From a virus (taxonomy: Duplodnaviria; Heunggongvirae; Uroviricota; Caudoviricetes), in IMG/VR virus record IMGVR_UViG_2698536339_000002: a stretch of DNA of 25,965 bases; one strand, given 5' to 3'. The notes beneath the pieces were generated by a model that was not told the origin of the DNA, did not search any database, and saw nothing but the letters and a program-made list of their open reading frames with translations. Shown one piece after another: positions 3,882-8,628 of the stretch (within the stretch, counting starts at the first letter, position 1; each line of letters begins with the position of its first letter). The translations under genes and the position numbers were made by a program.

Positions 3882-4934
3882 ATGAAAAATACTGTAAAAA
3901 TAAACAGTGTTGATTTAATCAACGCTGATTGCCTGCATTTTATTCAGTCCCTGCCTGATGATTCCATTGACCTGATTGTTACCGATCCGCCGTACTTCAA
4001 GGTGAAACCCAACGGCTGGGACAATCAGTGGAAAGGGGACGAAGATTACCTTAAGTGGCTGGACCACTGTCTGGCCCAGTTCTGGCGGGTGTTAAAACCT
4101 GCCGGAAGCCTTTACCTGTTCTGTGGGCATCGCCTGGCATCTGATATTGAGATCATGATGCGTGAACGTTTCAACGTGCTTAACCATATCATCTGGGCGA
4201 AGCCGTCCGGACGTTGGAATGGGTGTAATAAAGAAAGTCTGCGCGCATATTTTCCTGCCACAGAGCGCGTTCTGTTTGCTGAACATTACCAGGGACCATA
4301 TCGCGGCAAAAGTGACGGCTATGCGGCAAAAGAAAGGGAACTCAAACAGCACATAATGGCACCGCTGATATCGTATTTCAGGGATGCTCGTGCCGAACTG
4401 GGTATAACGGCAAAACAAATTGCCGAAGCCACAGGTAAGAAAAATATGGTTTCCCACTGGTTTGGTGCCAGTCAGTGGCAGTTGCCGAATGAGGCTGACT
4501 ATCGGAAGTTACAGGCACTGTTTTCCCGTATAGCGGCAGAGAAGTTTCAGGAACAACAACTGGAACAACCACACCACCAGCTGGTGGCATCTTATGATTC
4601 ACTGAATCGTAAATATTCTGAATTGCTGGATGAGTTTAAATCTCTCCGGCGCTATTTCTCCGTATCAGTCTCCGTGCCTTATACCGATGTCTGGATGCAT
4701 AAACCCGTTCAGTTCTACCCGGGGAAACATCCGTGTGAGAAACCGGCGGATATGCTCAGGCAAATAATCAATGCCAGTAGTCGACCAGGTGATCTGGTTG
4801 CTGATTTTTTTATGGGATCCGGTTCCACAATAAAAGCAGCAATGGCGCTGGGGCGTCGGGCCTTAGGTGTTGAGCTTGAGTCAGAGCGGTTTAATCAGAC
4901 AGTGAAAGAGATAAACGAGCTGGTGGGGAAATAA
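3882..4934 (+). CDS. Orphan DNA methyltransferase, beta-class amino-MTase (N6-adenine or N4-cytosine)
   Basis: Catalytic motif IV DPPY (LIVTDPPYF) lies near the N-terminus and the AdoMet-binding motif I (DFFMGSGST) near the C-terminus. This IV-then-I order defines beta-class amino-methyltransferases. No adjacent restriction endonuclease candidate. Confidence 0.85.
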
Positions 4935-5001: not shown

Positions 5002-5217
5002 ATGAAATCCATGGATAAGTTAACAACGGGTGTCGCCTATGGCACCTCAGCAGGTAGTGCCGGTTACTGGTTTTTACAGCTGCTCGATAAAGTCACGCCC
5101 TCACAGTGGGCAGCAATAGGTGTGCTGGGTAGCCTGGTATTTGGCCTGCTGACGTACCTGACAAACCTTTATTTCAAGATTAAAGAAGATAAGCGCAAGG
5201 CTGCGAGAGGTGAATAA
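5002..5217 (+). CDS. S: Class II pinholin (phage 21 S-like) with dual-start motif
   Basis: 71-aa product [26 protein letters not shown]...[17 protein letters not shown]...KRKAARGE with two TM segments. Met1-Lys2-Ser3-Met4 is a holin/antiholin dual-start arrangement. SD GAGGTGGGG lies upstream of ATG 5002. The 4939 start in the ORF track is probably an upstream over-extension. Confidence 0.8.
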
Positions 5218-5783
5218 TGCCTCCATCATTACGAAAAGCCGTTGCTGCTGCTATTGGTGGCGGAGCAATTGCTATAGCATCAGTGTTAATCACTGGCCCA
5301 AGTGGTGACGATGGCCTGGAAGGTGTCAGCTACATACCATACAAAGATATCGTTGGCGTATGGACTGTATGTCACGGACACACCGGAAAAGACATCATGC
5401 TCGGTAAAACGTATACCGAAGCAGAATGCAAAGCCCTCCTGAATAAAGACCTTGCCACGGTTGCCAGACAAATTAACCCGTACATCAAAGTCGATATACC
5501 GGAAACAACGCGCGGCGCTCTTTACTCGTTCGTCTACAACGTGGGTGCTGGCAATTTCAGAACATCGACGCTTCTTCGCAAAATAAACCAGGGCGATATC
5601 AAAGGCGCATGTGACCAGCTACGTCGCTGGATATACGCTGGCGGTAAGCAATGGAAAGGCCTGATGACTCGTCGTGAGATTGAGCGTGAAGTTTGCCTGT
5701 GGGCAGAAAAACCTCAGGTTCTTGGTGATGGGCTCGGGCCGCTTAACCCAGGCATTCCGGTATCAGTTCCGGGGGTATTCTGA
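5217..5783 (+). CDS. R: SAR endolysin (signal-anchor-release lysozyme, phage 21 R-like)
   Basis: N-terminal Gly/Ala-rich weakly hydrophobic SAR segment ([20 protein letters not shown]) followed by a lysozyme domain with Glu35, Asp44 and Thr50 at the expected catalytic spacing. Directly follows the pinholin. Confidence 0.85.
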
Positions 5784-6319
5784 TGAAACCCAGAAAAATT
5801 ACGATTGTTGCGGTTCTGCTGGTGGCTGTCGTAATCATTATTGCAGTGCTTAGCGTATTACTGGTTCGTAGCCGCTCAGCTCTTGAAACAGAACAGAGTG
5901 AGAATCGGGTATTACGTAATGATAACGCGCTGCAGGCGACGGTGATAACTACACAGGCTTTCAACTTCAATCGGTTTAACCAGATAGCAGAGAACGCCAA
6001 CCGCCTTAACTCGCTGATCGATGCCGGTACTGAGAAAACTGTCATCGAATACCGGGAGATTCTCCGACGTGAAAAGACCTGTGATCTGCCTGTTCCTGCT
6101 GATGTCGCTGGTGGGCTGCTCAAATACGCGTACCGTTTACGTGCCAGCGCAATGCACCCCGATACCGGGAACACTAACGCAACCGATGATAGTACCGCTG
6201 CCGCCAGCTCAATGACGTATTGCCAGGCCGTCCTCTGGATTGAACCTTTGCTGGCTGTTATTGAGAAGGGCAACAATAACCTGGCGGGTATACGAGAGAT
6301 TGAGAAGTTACGAAAATGA
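5783..6319 (+). CDS. Rz: i-spanin (Rz-like), type II inner-membrane protein
   Basis: N-terminal TM helix (ITIVAVLLVAVVIIIAVLSVLLV) then a charged, coiled-coil-like periplasmic domain. Start overlaps the endolysin stop (TGATG). The o-spanin gene is embedded within it. Confidence 0.75.
   Translation: MKPRKITIVAVLLVAVVIIIAVLSVLLVRSRSALETEQSENRVLRNDNALQATVITTQAFNFNRFNQIAENANRLNSLIDAGTEKTVIEYREILRREKTCDLPVPADVAGGLLKYAYRLRASAMHPDTGNTNATDDSTAAASSMTYCQAVLWIEPLLAVIEKGNNNLAGIREIEKLRK
6069..6215 (+). CDS. Rz1: o-spanin (Rz1-like) outer-membrane lipoprotein, embedded in +1 frame within Rz
   Basis: GTG start at 6069 preceded by GGGAGA. Signal peptide with lipobox LVGC, then a Pro-rich mature region (PAQCTPIPGTLTQPMIVPLPP). 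Fully nested in Rz in the +1 frame. Confidence 0.65.
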   Translation: MKRPVICLFLLMSLVGCSNTRTVYVPAQCTPIPGTLTQPMIVPLPPAQ

Positions 6320-6581
6320 ATAATGTCCGTTGACATTGTTAGGGTGATTCTCATTTAACAACCTCAACTGCTACATTACAGTGCTTCATCATGCAATTAG
6401 CTTTTTCACCAATGGCTTAGATCCAGTGAAAGTTACTGACGTTATCTAATGACAAGATGAACGTAGCTTTTGTGTAGTTTTTCAGCGAATAGGATTATCT
6501 GAATTTAGCATTTTTGGCTTGTATAAACTGTGGGTAAGTAGCTATAGTCACGTCATAGATAGTATTTTTGCATCTTTTTCA

Positions 6582-6601
6582 AGCCTCTTTTGAGGCTTTT
6601 T
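6582..6601 (+). terminator. Rho-independent terminator in the noncoding gap after the lysis cassette
   Basis: AGCCTC / TTTT / GAGGCT hairpin followed by a T-run. Confidence 0.45.
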
Positions 6602-6689
6602 GCACATTTAAATATGACAACAATGGCACATATAGTATGTCCCCCTTGGCACAGGCACTATATGTAGCGCTATAAAAGGAACTATCATT

Positions 6690-6890
6690 ATGACCCCAGC
6701 TGAGTTCTACGATGTTTACAATATCAAACCGGCAGAAATGTTGACTGGTGAAACTGTTAACAACTTCGCTTCTCGTGTAATGGCACAGCAAACTAGTACG
6801 AGTGGAAACACAGGTGTTTGGTACTCACAAGGTACCGCTACACAATCGAAGCAAAACCAAACTACAAGTCATCAACTTTACACGTACTGA
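6690..6890 (+). CDS. Small hypothetical protein (66 aa), first gene of a two-gene accessory insert
   Basis: ATG with AAGGA Shine-Dalgarno 8-9 nt upstream. Product has a Gln/Thr/Ser-rich C-terminal half. Separated from the next gene by only 3 nt. Confidence 0.45.
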   Translation: MTPAEFYDVYNIKPAEMLTGETVNNFASRVMAQQTSTSGNTGVWYSQGTATQSKQNQTTSHQLYTY

Positions 6891-6893
6891 TTT

Positions 6894-7796
6894 ATGCCTA
6901 ATTGGAGCGACGTACTGGGCGAGATAACGGCTCTCGCCCATAAAAGTCCTATGGATGAGGTTCGCCGTAAATACTTATCTCAACTTTCGAATCATACTGG
7001 AAGAAATGTAATCACATATTACTCAGGGTGGTTACAGCATGGTGGTGCAGAAGTACGCCATCTTACTCAGATGACTGATGATGATAAGAACGGGTTGATG
7101 ACAGCCATCAATGGTTTAGATGTATCAAAAGGGTTGGATTTGATACTTCATACTCCAGGTGGTGATATTGCCGCTTTGGAATCAATCGGGCATTACTTAA
7201 GGTCGAAGTTTGGAACTAACATCAGAGCAATTGTTCCTATGATTTCAATGTCCTGCGGAACTATGCTTGCATGTTGTGCCAATGAAATCATCATGGGTAA
7301 ACAGTCCAACATTGGCCCAATTGATCCTCAGTTCAACGGTTTCTCCACCCATGCCATCATTGAAGAATGGAATCGTGCGCAGACGGAAATTTTTCAAAAT
7401 CCCGCAGCTGTTCAGATGTGGCAGTTCATTCTTCAAAAGCTAAACCCGACGATCATCGGCGAGTGTGAGAAAGCAATCAAATGGGCAAATGAGATTGTTA
7501 AGCATTGGCTTATGACAGGCATGTTTGATAATGATCCTGAGGCAGAATCAAAAGCAACACATGTTTGTTCAGAGTTAAACAACCATCACACAACCTATAC
7601 CCACTCGCGTCATATTCATTTTGATAAGGCGCAGAAAATTGGGTTGAATGTTACCGAACTTGAAAGTGATCAAGTACTTCAAGATTTGGTTTTGACTATA
7701 CATCACAGCTACATGCATTCTTTTGGTGGAGCACCACTGGCAAAAATCATTGAAAATCATAACGGTAACGCAATGATTTGGAATATCCAGTCTTAA
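6894..7796 (+). CDS. ClpP-fold serine peptidase (SDH / S49-like family), accessory (non-capsid) protease
   Basis: 300-aa product with the ClpP/crotonase-fold peptidase signature LHTPGGD and downstream PMISMSCGTMLACCANE (candidate nucleophile Ser). Lower G+C than the structural genes. Sits between spanins and cos, the slot lambda uses for bor. Confidence 0.65.
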   Translation: MPNWSDVLGEITALAHKSPMDEVRRKYLSQLSNHTGRNVITYYSGWLQHGGAEVRHLTQMTDDDKNGLMTAINGLDVSKGLDLILHTPGGDIAALESIGHYLRSKFGTNIRAIVPMISMSCGTMLACCANEIIMGKQSNIGPIDPQFNGFSTHAIIEEWNRAQTEIFQNPAAVQMWQFILQKLNPTIIGECEKAIKWANEIVKHWLMTGMFDNDPEAESKATHVCSELNNHHTTYTHSRHIHFDKAQKIGLNVTELESDQVLQDLVLTIHHSYMHSFGGAPLAKIIENHNGNAMIWNIQS

Positions 7797-7813
7797 TCCC
7801 CCCTGTCTGATTC

Positions 7814-7838
7814 CAGCCTCGCCTATGCGGGGCTTTTT
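7814..7838 (+). terminator. Rho-independent terminator after the peptidase gene
   Basis: GCCTCGCC / TAT / GCGGGGC imperfect hairpin followed by TTTTTT. Confidence 0.5.
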
Positions 7839-7904
7839 TACGCGTATTGCATACTCAAATCAAACTAGAGTCGTTTAGAAGAGAATTCAAAACGGCGGTC
7901 GGAC

Positions 7905-8125
7905 CTGTGTTTTCTTATGGGTCCTCCCGGCGGGGTTGCCTACCACGGGGCGGGAGCGTCGCGGAAAAAGGCTAGTTTTTGAAATTTCATTCGTCATCAC
8001 CACTACTGTAATGTATTGATATTACGGTTATTTTATTTTTATGGTGTCGATTTTGATTGTTTTTTGTTCACCACTAACACCGTTTGCCTAAAGTTGTTCG
8101 CAAGATGCATGTTTAAAACATTCTG
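7905..8125. other. cos: cos site (cosN nicking region with flanking cosB-like terminase-binding region), lambda-like
   Basis: GGGTCCTCCCGG...CCACGGGGCGGGAGCGTCGCGG aligns with my recollection of the lambda right-end/left-end junction around the 12-nt cohesive end. The predicted equivalent here is about 7948-7959. An AT-rich bendable stretch and TTCATTCGTCATCACC follow, then nu1. Lambda sequence is recalled, not aligned computationally. Confidence 0.6.
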
Positions 8126-8133
8126 GAGCGGGT

Positions 8134-8628
8134 ATGGATCGAGAGTTAAAAAATCTGACGCTGAATATCAGTCAACTGGCGGCACTGTCAGGTGTACATC
8201 GCCAGACTGCTGCGGCAAGGCTGCAAAATCTACCCGTTGCAGGGGGGCATGAAAGCAACCTCAAGCTTTATCGGGTGGTTGATATTGTGTCGGCATTTCT
8301 GGCATTGCCACCGCCGGTTGCAGAAGGCGAAATGGACGCGCATGAGCGCAAAGCCTGGTATCAGTCTGAACGTGAGCGTCTTAAGTTCGAACAGGAAACG
8401 GCACAACTCATTCCGGCCAGTGATGTCAGACGGGAGTTTGCCATCTGGGCAAAAGCGGTCGTGCAGGTGCTGGAGACATTACCGGATATTCTTGAACGTG
8501 ACTGCGGTCTGCAGCCTGCCGCTGTGAGCCGTGTTCAGTCCATTATTGATGATCTGCGCGATCAGATAGCCCTGCGGGTGACTGAAGCAGGTGCGGATGA
8601 TGAGGAGGAATTACAGCAGGAGGAGTAA
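8134..8628 (+). CDS. nu1: Terminase small subunit (gpNu1-like)
   Basis: 164-aa ORF immediately downstream of cos, with an N-terminal HTH-like segment (LNISQLAALSGVHRQTAAARL) and an acidic C-terminus. Stop overlaps the large-subunit start (TAATG). Confidence 0.8.
   Translation: MDRELKNLTLNISQLAALSGVHRQTAAARLQNLPVAGGHESNLKLYRVVDIVSAFLALPPPVAEGEMDAHERKAWYQSERERLKFEQETAQLIPASDVRREFAIWAKAVVQVLETLPDILERDCGLQPAAVSRVQSIIDDLRDQIALRVTEAGADDEEELQQEE

Follow-up and report, generated by a model that had tools for sequence, protein, structure and literature searches.

A conserved promoter-like sequence and a putative two-hairpin leader ahead of a mobile small protein–protease cassette in a lambdoid Escherichia coli prophage

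The sequence considered here, a stretch of 25,965 nucleotides from the virus record IMGVR_UViG_2698536339_000002 (the window), represents the late part of a lambdoid Escherichia coli prophage. In it, 370 bp separate the stop codon of the lysis gene Rz from the ATG of a 66-codon open reading frame (ORF), referred to as ORF66, and the right-hand part of this gap (~6470–6689) is probably the control region of a moron, as judged from the comparison of related sequences. This control region would comprise a promoter (P1) and a leader of ~135 nucleotides having two stem-loops in the plus-strand RNA, hairpin 1 and hairpin 2, the first of which would act as a leaky terminator. An initial annotation of the gap had also pointed to a regulatory region; this is retained for the right-hand part, the specific model that came with it is not. 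The features of this region are the following.

6437–6518, plus strand: weakly conserved A/T-rich region upstream of P1, mean pairwise identity 0.49–0.66 (compared with 0.60 at the third codon positions of ORF66)
6519–6548, plus strand: predicted promoter P1, with the -35 hexamer TTGTAT (6519–6524), a spacer of 18 nucleotides and the -10 hexamer TATAGT (6543–6548); predicted start near A6555
6555–6601, plus strand: predicted short transcript of ~47 nucleotides if hairpin 1 terminates, from the geometry of P1 and the hairpin
6581–6601, plus strand: hairpin 1, with AAGCCTC (6581–6587), the loop TTTT (6588–6591), GAGGCTT (6592–6598) and a T-run (6597–6601)
6626–6668, plus strand: hairpin 2, with the arms ACATATAGT (6628–6636) and ACTATATGT (6657–6665) and the outer pairs G6626–C6668 and C6627–G6667
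6677–6692, plus strand: ribosome-binding site of ORF66, with the Shine-Dalgarno sequence AGGAA (6677–6681) and the ATG (6690–6692)
6690–6890, plus strand: ORF66, cassette gene 1, 66 codons, a conserved small protein

The conserved unit (~6470–6689) accompanies ORF66 and a protease gene of the SDH family in 16 distinct variants of the upstream region, which were collected by searches of IMG/VR, metagenomes and protein collections and which come from prophages of E. coli, Phytobacter, Mangrovibacter, Enterobacter, Proteus and Yersinia. The identity of the SDH protease to that of the window is 84% in Mangrovibacter, 74% in Enterobacter, 71% in Proteus and 68% in Yersinia. When the identity at the third codon positions of ORF66 (0.60) is taken as the neutral yardstick, four conserved islands are seen in the module: the P1 hexamers (0.90 for the -35, 1.00 for the -10), the stem halves of hairpin 1 (0.97 each), the 11 nucleotides 3' of hairpin 1 (TTTGCACATTT, 0.83) and the arms of the inverted repeat of hairpin 2 (0.89). 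Between these islands, the leader body (6560–6580; 0.56, about the neutral level) and the spacer of the inverted repeat (0.41) vary freely.

The geometry of P1 is preserved in all of these variants, across the six genera, with TTG at the -35 position, a spacing of 17–18 nucleotides and TATAGT (TATATT in Yersinia) at the -10 position. P1 scores 8.1 bits with a position weight matrix (PWM), and its -10 hexamer lies 22–33 nucleotides 5' of hairpin 1 in 16/16 variants (32 nucleotides in the window). These properties are consistent with an active promoter of the sigma-70 type. A T-rich stretch directly 5' of the -35 hexamer recurs in the variants (for example GCATTTTTGG in the E. coli group), and the region 6437–6518 is possibly an UP-like element or the site of a regulator.

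Both stems are maintained by compensatory changes. In the alignment of the 16 sequences, 97.2% of the cells pair and 9 of the 18 pairs have changed on both sides; none of 500 shuffles reaches the observed values, and the covariation score is 0.251 for the structure as compared with at most 0.119 when the partners are slid by 1–3 columns. RNAalifold recovers both hairpins from the first 13 close variants, with one compensatory pair each, and a covariance model built from the close variants finds the module in all more distant relatives, with E-values from 3e-8 to 5e-5. Hairpin 1 is present and fully paired in every variant, with 5 of its 7 pairs changed on both sides and with U-G wobbles, and its free energy (-10.2 kcal/mol in the window) stays between -9 and -12 kcal/mol. 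For hairpin 2, 4 of the 11 pairs have changed on both sides and 95% of the cells are paired. The changes are also visible by eye, as in the hairpin 1 halves AACCTCC/GGAGGTT of Yersinia, AGGCCTC/GAGGCCT of variant L053 and GAGCCTC/GGGGCTC (having a U-G pair) of variants L183 and L184, and in the hairpin 2 arms CTATATGTAGT/ACTACATATAG of L182 and CTACATGTTG/CAACATGTGG of L190; the compensatory changes of hairpin 2 are confirmed in this way in L052, L182, L184 and L190. The cells that are not Watson–Crick pairs are G-U or U-G in 10 cases and C-A in one, a pattern that neither a minus-strand RNA nor a symmetric site in DNA would be expected to give, and the pairing is therefore assigned to the plus-strand RNA.

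It is proposed that P1 starts a transcript near 6555, with a leader of ~135 nucleotides running into ORF66 and the SDH protease gene. Hairpin 1 is most likely a leaky intrinsic terminator, such that most P1 transcripts would end as the ~47-nucleotide RNA (6555–6601), and the fraction that reads through would carry hairpin 2 and the ribosome-binding site (6677–6681), giving a low level of the protease operon in the lysogen. In lambda, Q-modified polymerase reads through terminators; likewise, such polymerase, arriving from the late promoter of the phage in the lytic phase, would ignore hairpin 1 and transcribe the entire region. Hairpin 2, which lies shortly 5' of the Shine-Dalgarno sequence and is part of the read-through mRNA, probably serves mRNA stability or processing, or as a protein-binding site.

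Several observations weigh against this interpretation. The -35 hexamer of P1 matches the consensus at only 3/6 positions, its spacer is 18 nucleotides, and P1 is not listed by a stricter consensus scan. The U-run of hairpin 1 is only five long, with two of the five paired, and the contiguous T-run ranges from 0 to 6 among the variants, being 0 in L184 and 3 in L183, L188 and L053. No conserved antiterminator pairing is seen for hairpin 1 among the variants, so that any attenuation would be constitutive, not sensed. In hairpin 2, the loop length is near-constant (19–21 nucleotides in the closer variants, ~26 in Enterobacter) and five stem pairs are invariant, and these properties would also fit a sequence-specific recognition, including recognition of DNA. 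In addition, the best covariation statistics come from an alignment that was fitted to the model, and the diversity of the variants is modest, several of them being close relatives.

When considering hairpin 1 as a terminator, the stem has 7 bp with 5 GC-rich pairs, and it is followed by five contiguous T's, two of which belong to the stem, and then by a G. The initial annotation described a clean terminator at 6582–6601: the hairpin with its T-run exists, but it is not flagged by a consensus terminator scan, probably because only three T's follow the full stem. The T-run has five T's in the E. coli group and six in Yersinia; given the runs of 0–3 in the four variants mentioned above, termination cannot be the universally conserved role of hairpin 1, and with a T-run that varies among the relatives, it is the stem that is universally kept. 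The strength of the terminator probably varies as well, and in the window it would be moderate at best.

The same annotation offered, as an alternative to its RNA gene, that the terminator insulates the downstream genes. In this explanation hairpin 1 does nothing but insulate, by terminating unmodified polymerase that runs on from the lysis genes, and the remainder of the gap is functionless. The position after Rz and the shape of a hairpin with a U-run fit this, as does the expectation that Q-modified polymerase would ignore the hairpin. However, a conserved promoter lies upstream, so that the hairpin also acts on the transcripts of P1 itself; the hairpin is kept where the cassette stands directly behind tR', which already terminates; and hairpin 2 is left unexplained, as is the absence of the U-tract from some relatives. 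An insulator that explains neither the promoter 5' of the hairpin nor the retention of the hairpin behind tR' is very unlikely.

It is also conceivable, though unlikely, that P1 together with hairpin 1 is an independent gene encoding a trans-acting small RNA (sRNA) of ~47 nucleotides, with ORF66 and the SDH protease being expressed mainly by late read-through. The promoter, a U-rich body of ~26 nucleotides, the hairpin and the U-run would make up a complete sRNA-like unit at a lambdoid moron site, and the predicted RNA, in which a U-rich, poorly conserved 5' part is followed by hairpin 1 (fold z = -3.4, driven by the hairpin), resembles in its conserved 3' hairpin and variable 5' part a class of RNAs described in PMC4104026. 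That class comprises prophage sRNAs at moron sites (AgvB, AsxR; EcOnc01-03) of 51–60 nucleotides (PMC4104026). The lambdoid moron location and the predicted length (~47 versus 51–60 nucleotides) are similar; the module differs in being co-directional with, and 5' of, a coding operon to which it is always coupled, and not part of a convergent sRNA pair. A counterpart of the conserved ~42-nucleotide 3' region of AgvB and AsxR is presumably absent, given that no Rfam 15 model is matched and that the class is presumed to be among the models. More generally, no Rfam family is matched down to E = 10 across 5500–8600, nor at gathering scores in the window and seven relatives; matches at chance level (for example to CRISPR repeats and small nucleolar RNAs) are driven by the hairpin and were dropped. 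The body of the predicted RNA diverges at the neutral level (0.56), without a conserved seed, several relatives lack the U-tract, and the best complementarity to targets within the window is a single 10-mer, about what is expected by chance. Finally, the element is never found without ORF66 and the SDH protease, and hairpin 2 is conserved as plus-strand RNA, which needs read-through past hairpin 1.

Two sequence features near hairpin 1 are mentioned here as side observations. The segment directly 3' of hairpin 1, TTTTTGCACATTT (6597–6609), is conserved at 0.83 within the E. coli/Phytobacter group and is lost in distant relatives, and its GCACAT recurs at the start of the first arm of hairpin 2 (6624–6631). 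On the minus strand, an ORF of 19–21 codons (MCKKPQKRL...SMxEL; 6548–6607) starts at the CAT of this GCACAT, runs across hairpin 1 and stops in or just before the -10 hexamer of P1. Its candidacy as a gene was rejected: it is intact in 7/12 variants, frameshifted or truncated in three and without an ATG in two, and a Shine-Dalgarno sequence is missing. The conservation of the elements on the plus strand probably gives rise to this frame as a side effect.

The arms of hairpin 2 are complementary at 9/9 positions in the window and are 20 nucleotides apart, and no further conserved pairing beyond chance is found inside the loop across the variants. A separate promoter for this part, P2 (TTTAAA at 6607, 18 nucleotides, TATAGT at 6631), was considered and rejected, as its -10 hexamer loses the essential A in L052 and L053. 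With these same substitutions the stem stays paired, and hairpin 2 would thus be transcribed from upstream, that is from P1 and through hairpin 1. Also rejected was a pairing of the 5' end of the leader (6553–6563) with the start of ORF66 (6680–6693), for which RNAalifold gives a helix of 5 bp (CAUAG/YUAUG); it has no double changes and is broken in L051.

The region of hairpin 2 (6624–6665) was initially annotated as a possible operator, from a pair of near-repeats containing TGGCAC. The two copies exist (6624–6629 and 6647–6652) and are part of a direct near-repeat of 18 nucleotides (72% identical), but the second copy is missing from other variants and the conserved feature is an inverted, not a direct, repeat. 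A sigma-54 promoter at TGGCAC was also discarded, because by eye the -12 position lacks a TTGC and the second TGGCAC lacks conservation. The inverted repeat is better read as a stem-loop of the plus-strand RNA, considering the compensatory and G-U changes; that 6628–6636/6657–6665 is a DNA operator, at which a dimeric repressor (of the phage or the host, or ORF66 itself) would block transcription from P1 into the operon, is a rather improbable alternative. Perfect arms of 9 bp, the near-constant arm spacing of 19–21 nucleotides in spite of a free spacer sequence, and five invariant stem positions are what an operator would show, and the compensatory changes preserve the DNA palindrome as well. 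On the other hand, the one-sided changes, which are nearly all compatible with G-U pairs in the plus strand (10 versus 1), break the DNA symmetry, the spacing reaches ~26 nucleotides in Enterobacter and the orientation of the half-sites is effectively flipped in L182 and L185. The site is ~80 nucleotides downstream of the -10 hexamer of P1, not over the promoter, and has no other copies in the window. The AlphaFold model of ORF66 is of low confidence (predicted local distance difference test, pLDDT, 57) and shows two short helices and no recognisable DNA-binding fold; the idea of ORF66 as a DNA-binding protein was set aside, the model being too poor to say whether nucleic acid is bound.

The assignment of the control region to a moron follows from the properties of the cassette and its neighbourhood, for which the other features of the window are listed below.

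3882–4934: DNA methyltransferase gene, followed by the holin gene
5217–5783: lysozyme gene
5783–6319: Rz, with Rz1 embedded; stop codon at 6319
6320–6689: gap between the Rz stop codon and the ATG of ORF66
6320–6436, no strand assigned: lineage-specific filler after the Rz stop codon, with a TTGACA sequence and an imperfect hairpin, outside the conserved module
6894–7796, plus strand: cassette gene 2, a ClpP-fold serine protease of the SDH family (PF01972, E = 8e-23; RefSeq name; PHROG 11747)
7815–7840, plus strand: strong intrinsic terminator closing the cassette (hairpin 7815–7834), an 8-bp stem with 6 GC pairs, followed by TTTTTT
from 8134: terminase genes

Morons are accessory units that are inserted between conserved lambdoid genes and transcribed autonomously, from a promoter and up to a terminator of their own (Juhala et al. 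2000, as cited in PMC4104026; reviewed in PMC3594210). The cassette resembles them in all these respects. It has its own conserved sigma-70-like promoter (in 16/16 variants, from sequence evidence) and a strong terminator after its last gene, an equivalent of which is found 3' of the SDH gene in 10/11 relatives examined, and its presence is variable, the GC content being atypical. The gap was initially described as AT-rich, which is borne out by a GC content of 36–37% as compared with 50–57% in the phage genes on either side; the gap opens an AT-rich island of 1.8 kb within the late operon (6320–8130, GC 36–44%), which is the signature of an inserted accessory cassette. Related Rz genes exist without the cassette segment. 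The cassette occupies two classical moron sites, either between Rz and the terminase genes or directly behind Q-pR'-tR', ahead of the holin gene. The latter arrangement, behind Q and a canonical pR'-tR', is seen in Mangrovibacter, Enterobacter and Yersinia (L184 1445–1794, L185–L187 1364–2000 and L190 1179–1787). What the cassette adds to a generic moron is the structured leader of ~135 nucleotides, with two covarying stem-loops between the promoter and the first gene.

Of 5,426 complete E. coli genomes, 42 carry the gap with an identity of at least 99.5% to that of the window, and 7 further genomes match only 6507–6680, with 76% identity, in other lambdoid prophages and again before a 66-codon ORF and an SDH protease. 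Together, 49/5,426 genomes (about 1%) carry the gap or its conserved half. Cultured phages give no match to the DNA or to ORF66, and their SDH proteases are at most 46% identical. A protein scan of genome contigs found nothing, a DNA-pattern scan of genome contigs gave ~100 chance matches and no true module, and the IMG/VR matches to the inverted repeat only (L041–L047) were set aside as unrelated chance matches.

The order of promoter, short RNA, terminator and genes is known from other systems. As in the lambda pR'-6S RNA-tR' unit, a promoter that would be constitutive is followed by a terminator a few tens of nucleotides on, with genes beyond. However, a separate promoter–terminator unit is present between Q and the module in L184, L185–L187 and L190 (for example AACCTCGCATTTGCGGGGTTTTTTT in L184), and with this canonical unit lying upstream in relatives, the module is the cassette's own and not the pR'-tR' of the phage; in the window, ~5 kb separate Q from the module downstream. 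It also travels between phages that have different Q families, and it is therefore not the Q-responsive unit of the phage.

Leader terminators, or constitutive attenuators, are known to precede genes that are toxic or whose expression is tightly limited; in type III toxin–antitoxin loci, for example, a terminator is found between toxI and toxN. The module shares with such leader terminators the order of promoter, short RNA, hairpin with U-run and protein gene, and a terminated product that is far shorter than the full transcript; unlike toxI-toxN, the cassette has no known toxin and no conserved antiterminator fold, and the U-tract is lost in some relatives. The tandem RNA repeats of a type III system are not found in 6250–6950, where only short two-copy repeats occur.

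When these comparisons are taken together, the leader would be an undescribed example of a familiar type of element, namely a moron promoter whose structured leader may act by attenuation, and the comparative data support this reading well. As a regulatory principle this is unsurprising and of modest general interest. A seemingly empty gap of 370 bp is resolved into a defined control region: a promoter, a pair of covarying RNA stem-loops and a small gene lacking annotation. The region belongs to a mobile two-gene cassette that occurs in ~1% of complete E. coli genomes and in prophages of five or more further genera of enterobacteria. Should the protease module turn out to serve defence or to benefit the lysogen, the leader would be the place where its expression is set. 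One may speculate further, with little confidence, that the leader with its two hairpins represents a cis-regulatory RNA not described before, by which the ORF66/ClpP-like protease module is gated: for example, termination at hairpin 1 could be conditional, and hairpin 2 could be bound by ORF66 or the protease. In that case a specific signal, for instance superinfection or induction, would be needed to switch the operon on. The abundant terminated RNA of ~47 nucleotides might have a role in trans of its own.

The left part of the gap does not share the conservation of the control region. The region ~6470–6689 is conserved among related prophages, but 6320–~6436 is found only in near-identical ones; homology to all other variants begins no further left than ~6405–6470, and the Rz homologues of other prophages stop matching at ~6306–6313. 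The segment 6320–~6436, including its TTGACA, is therefore lineage-specific and seems to be unconserved junction DNA left where the moron was inserted after Rz. This bears on the central proposal of the initial annotation, a noncoding RNA of ~250 nucleotides from a TTGACA promoter box at 6330–6335 to the terminator at 6582–6601. The TTGACA sequence is present, and a different site (TTAACA at 6355, 16 nucleotides, TACAGT at 6377; 9.0 bits) could give an RNA of ~210 nucleotides ending at the hairpin; sites of at least 9 bits, however, are found in the window at a rate of about one per 3 kb on each strand. The best -10 partner of TTGACA at a distance of 15–19 nucleotides scores only 3.8 bits (other sites in the gap reach 8–9 bits with the PWM), which leaves it without a usable -10 hexamer, and the window has 10 copies of TTGACA, where 16.0 ± 3.9 are found in shuffled sequences, so the hexamer count is below chance expectation. 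On these two grounds the TTGACA-based promoter was dropped. The 250-nucleotide structured RNA was dropped on its fold (z = -0.26); moreover, the Rfam search, which had been suggested as a check, found no family in the gap, and the first ~115–185 nucleotides of the proposed RNA are not shared with any other cassette variant. With the conserved promoter only 32 nucleotides upstream of the hairpin, any terminated RNA would have ~47 nucleotides, not 250, and the longer RNA is the least probable of the explanations considered. The TTGACA lies within the 5' arm of an imperfect hairpin, 6329–6341/6356–6368 (GTTGACATTGTTA / TAACAACCTCAAC), which is 85% complementary with a loop of 14 nucleotides and has neither a T-run nor comparative support.

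The gap was also said to have no ORF above ~10 codons. This is not correct, as the plus strand has ORFs of 22, 24, 25 and 35 codons and the minus strand has ORFs of 26 and 70 codons; none of them is conserved as an ORF among the variants. A minus-strand ORF of 203 codons (5743–6354), antisense to Rz, extends 35 nucleotides into the gap, has no annotation in RefSeq in a matching prophage and is almost certainly spurious. No tRNA or tmRNA was found in the window.

ORF66 evolves like a real gene, with identities of 0.87 at the first, 0.91 at the second and 0.60 at the third codon position. It belongs to PHROG 25714 and to 10 clusters among 5.8 billion proteins, and it is left unannotated by RefSeq in the prophage of the window type. 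An ORF of 66–67 codons is found directly 5' of the SDH protease gene in every fetched relative whose upstream region was read, down to 68% protease identity. This suggests that the two proteins are a functional pair, in which ORF66 may be, for example, a substrate, an inhibitor or a partner of the protease. Both PHROGs of the cargo (25714 and 11747) are without an assigned function; neither ORF66 nor the SDH protease has a PADLOC match at E ≤ 0.01, and a literature search on SDH proteases in prophages found nothing relevant. The Shine-Dalgarno sequence of ORF66 is AGGAA in the window and AGGAG in all other copies, dozens of which come from prophages that are otherwise identical, and this private G-to-A change at 6681 should weaken the translation of ORF66 in the strain of the window, as predicted from the sequence.

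Beyond the cassette terminator, 7797–8133 is a second AT-rich, ORF-poor gap, which extends to the small terminase gene; in it, only sub-threshold Rfam matches are found (GcvB, 17.9 bits as compared with a threshold of 42 bits; SorY; isrJ), apparently driven by the terminator. In two of the relatives (L002 and L003, 4353–4921), a shortened second lysis cassette, consisting of a GH19 endolysin pseudogene and Rz-like ORFs, lies directly upstream of the module, which suggests that the cassette arrived together with part of the lysis region of a donor phage.

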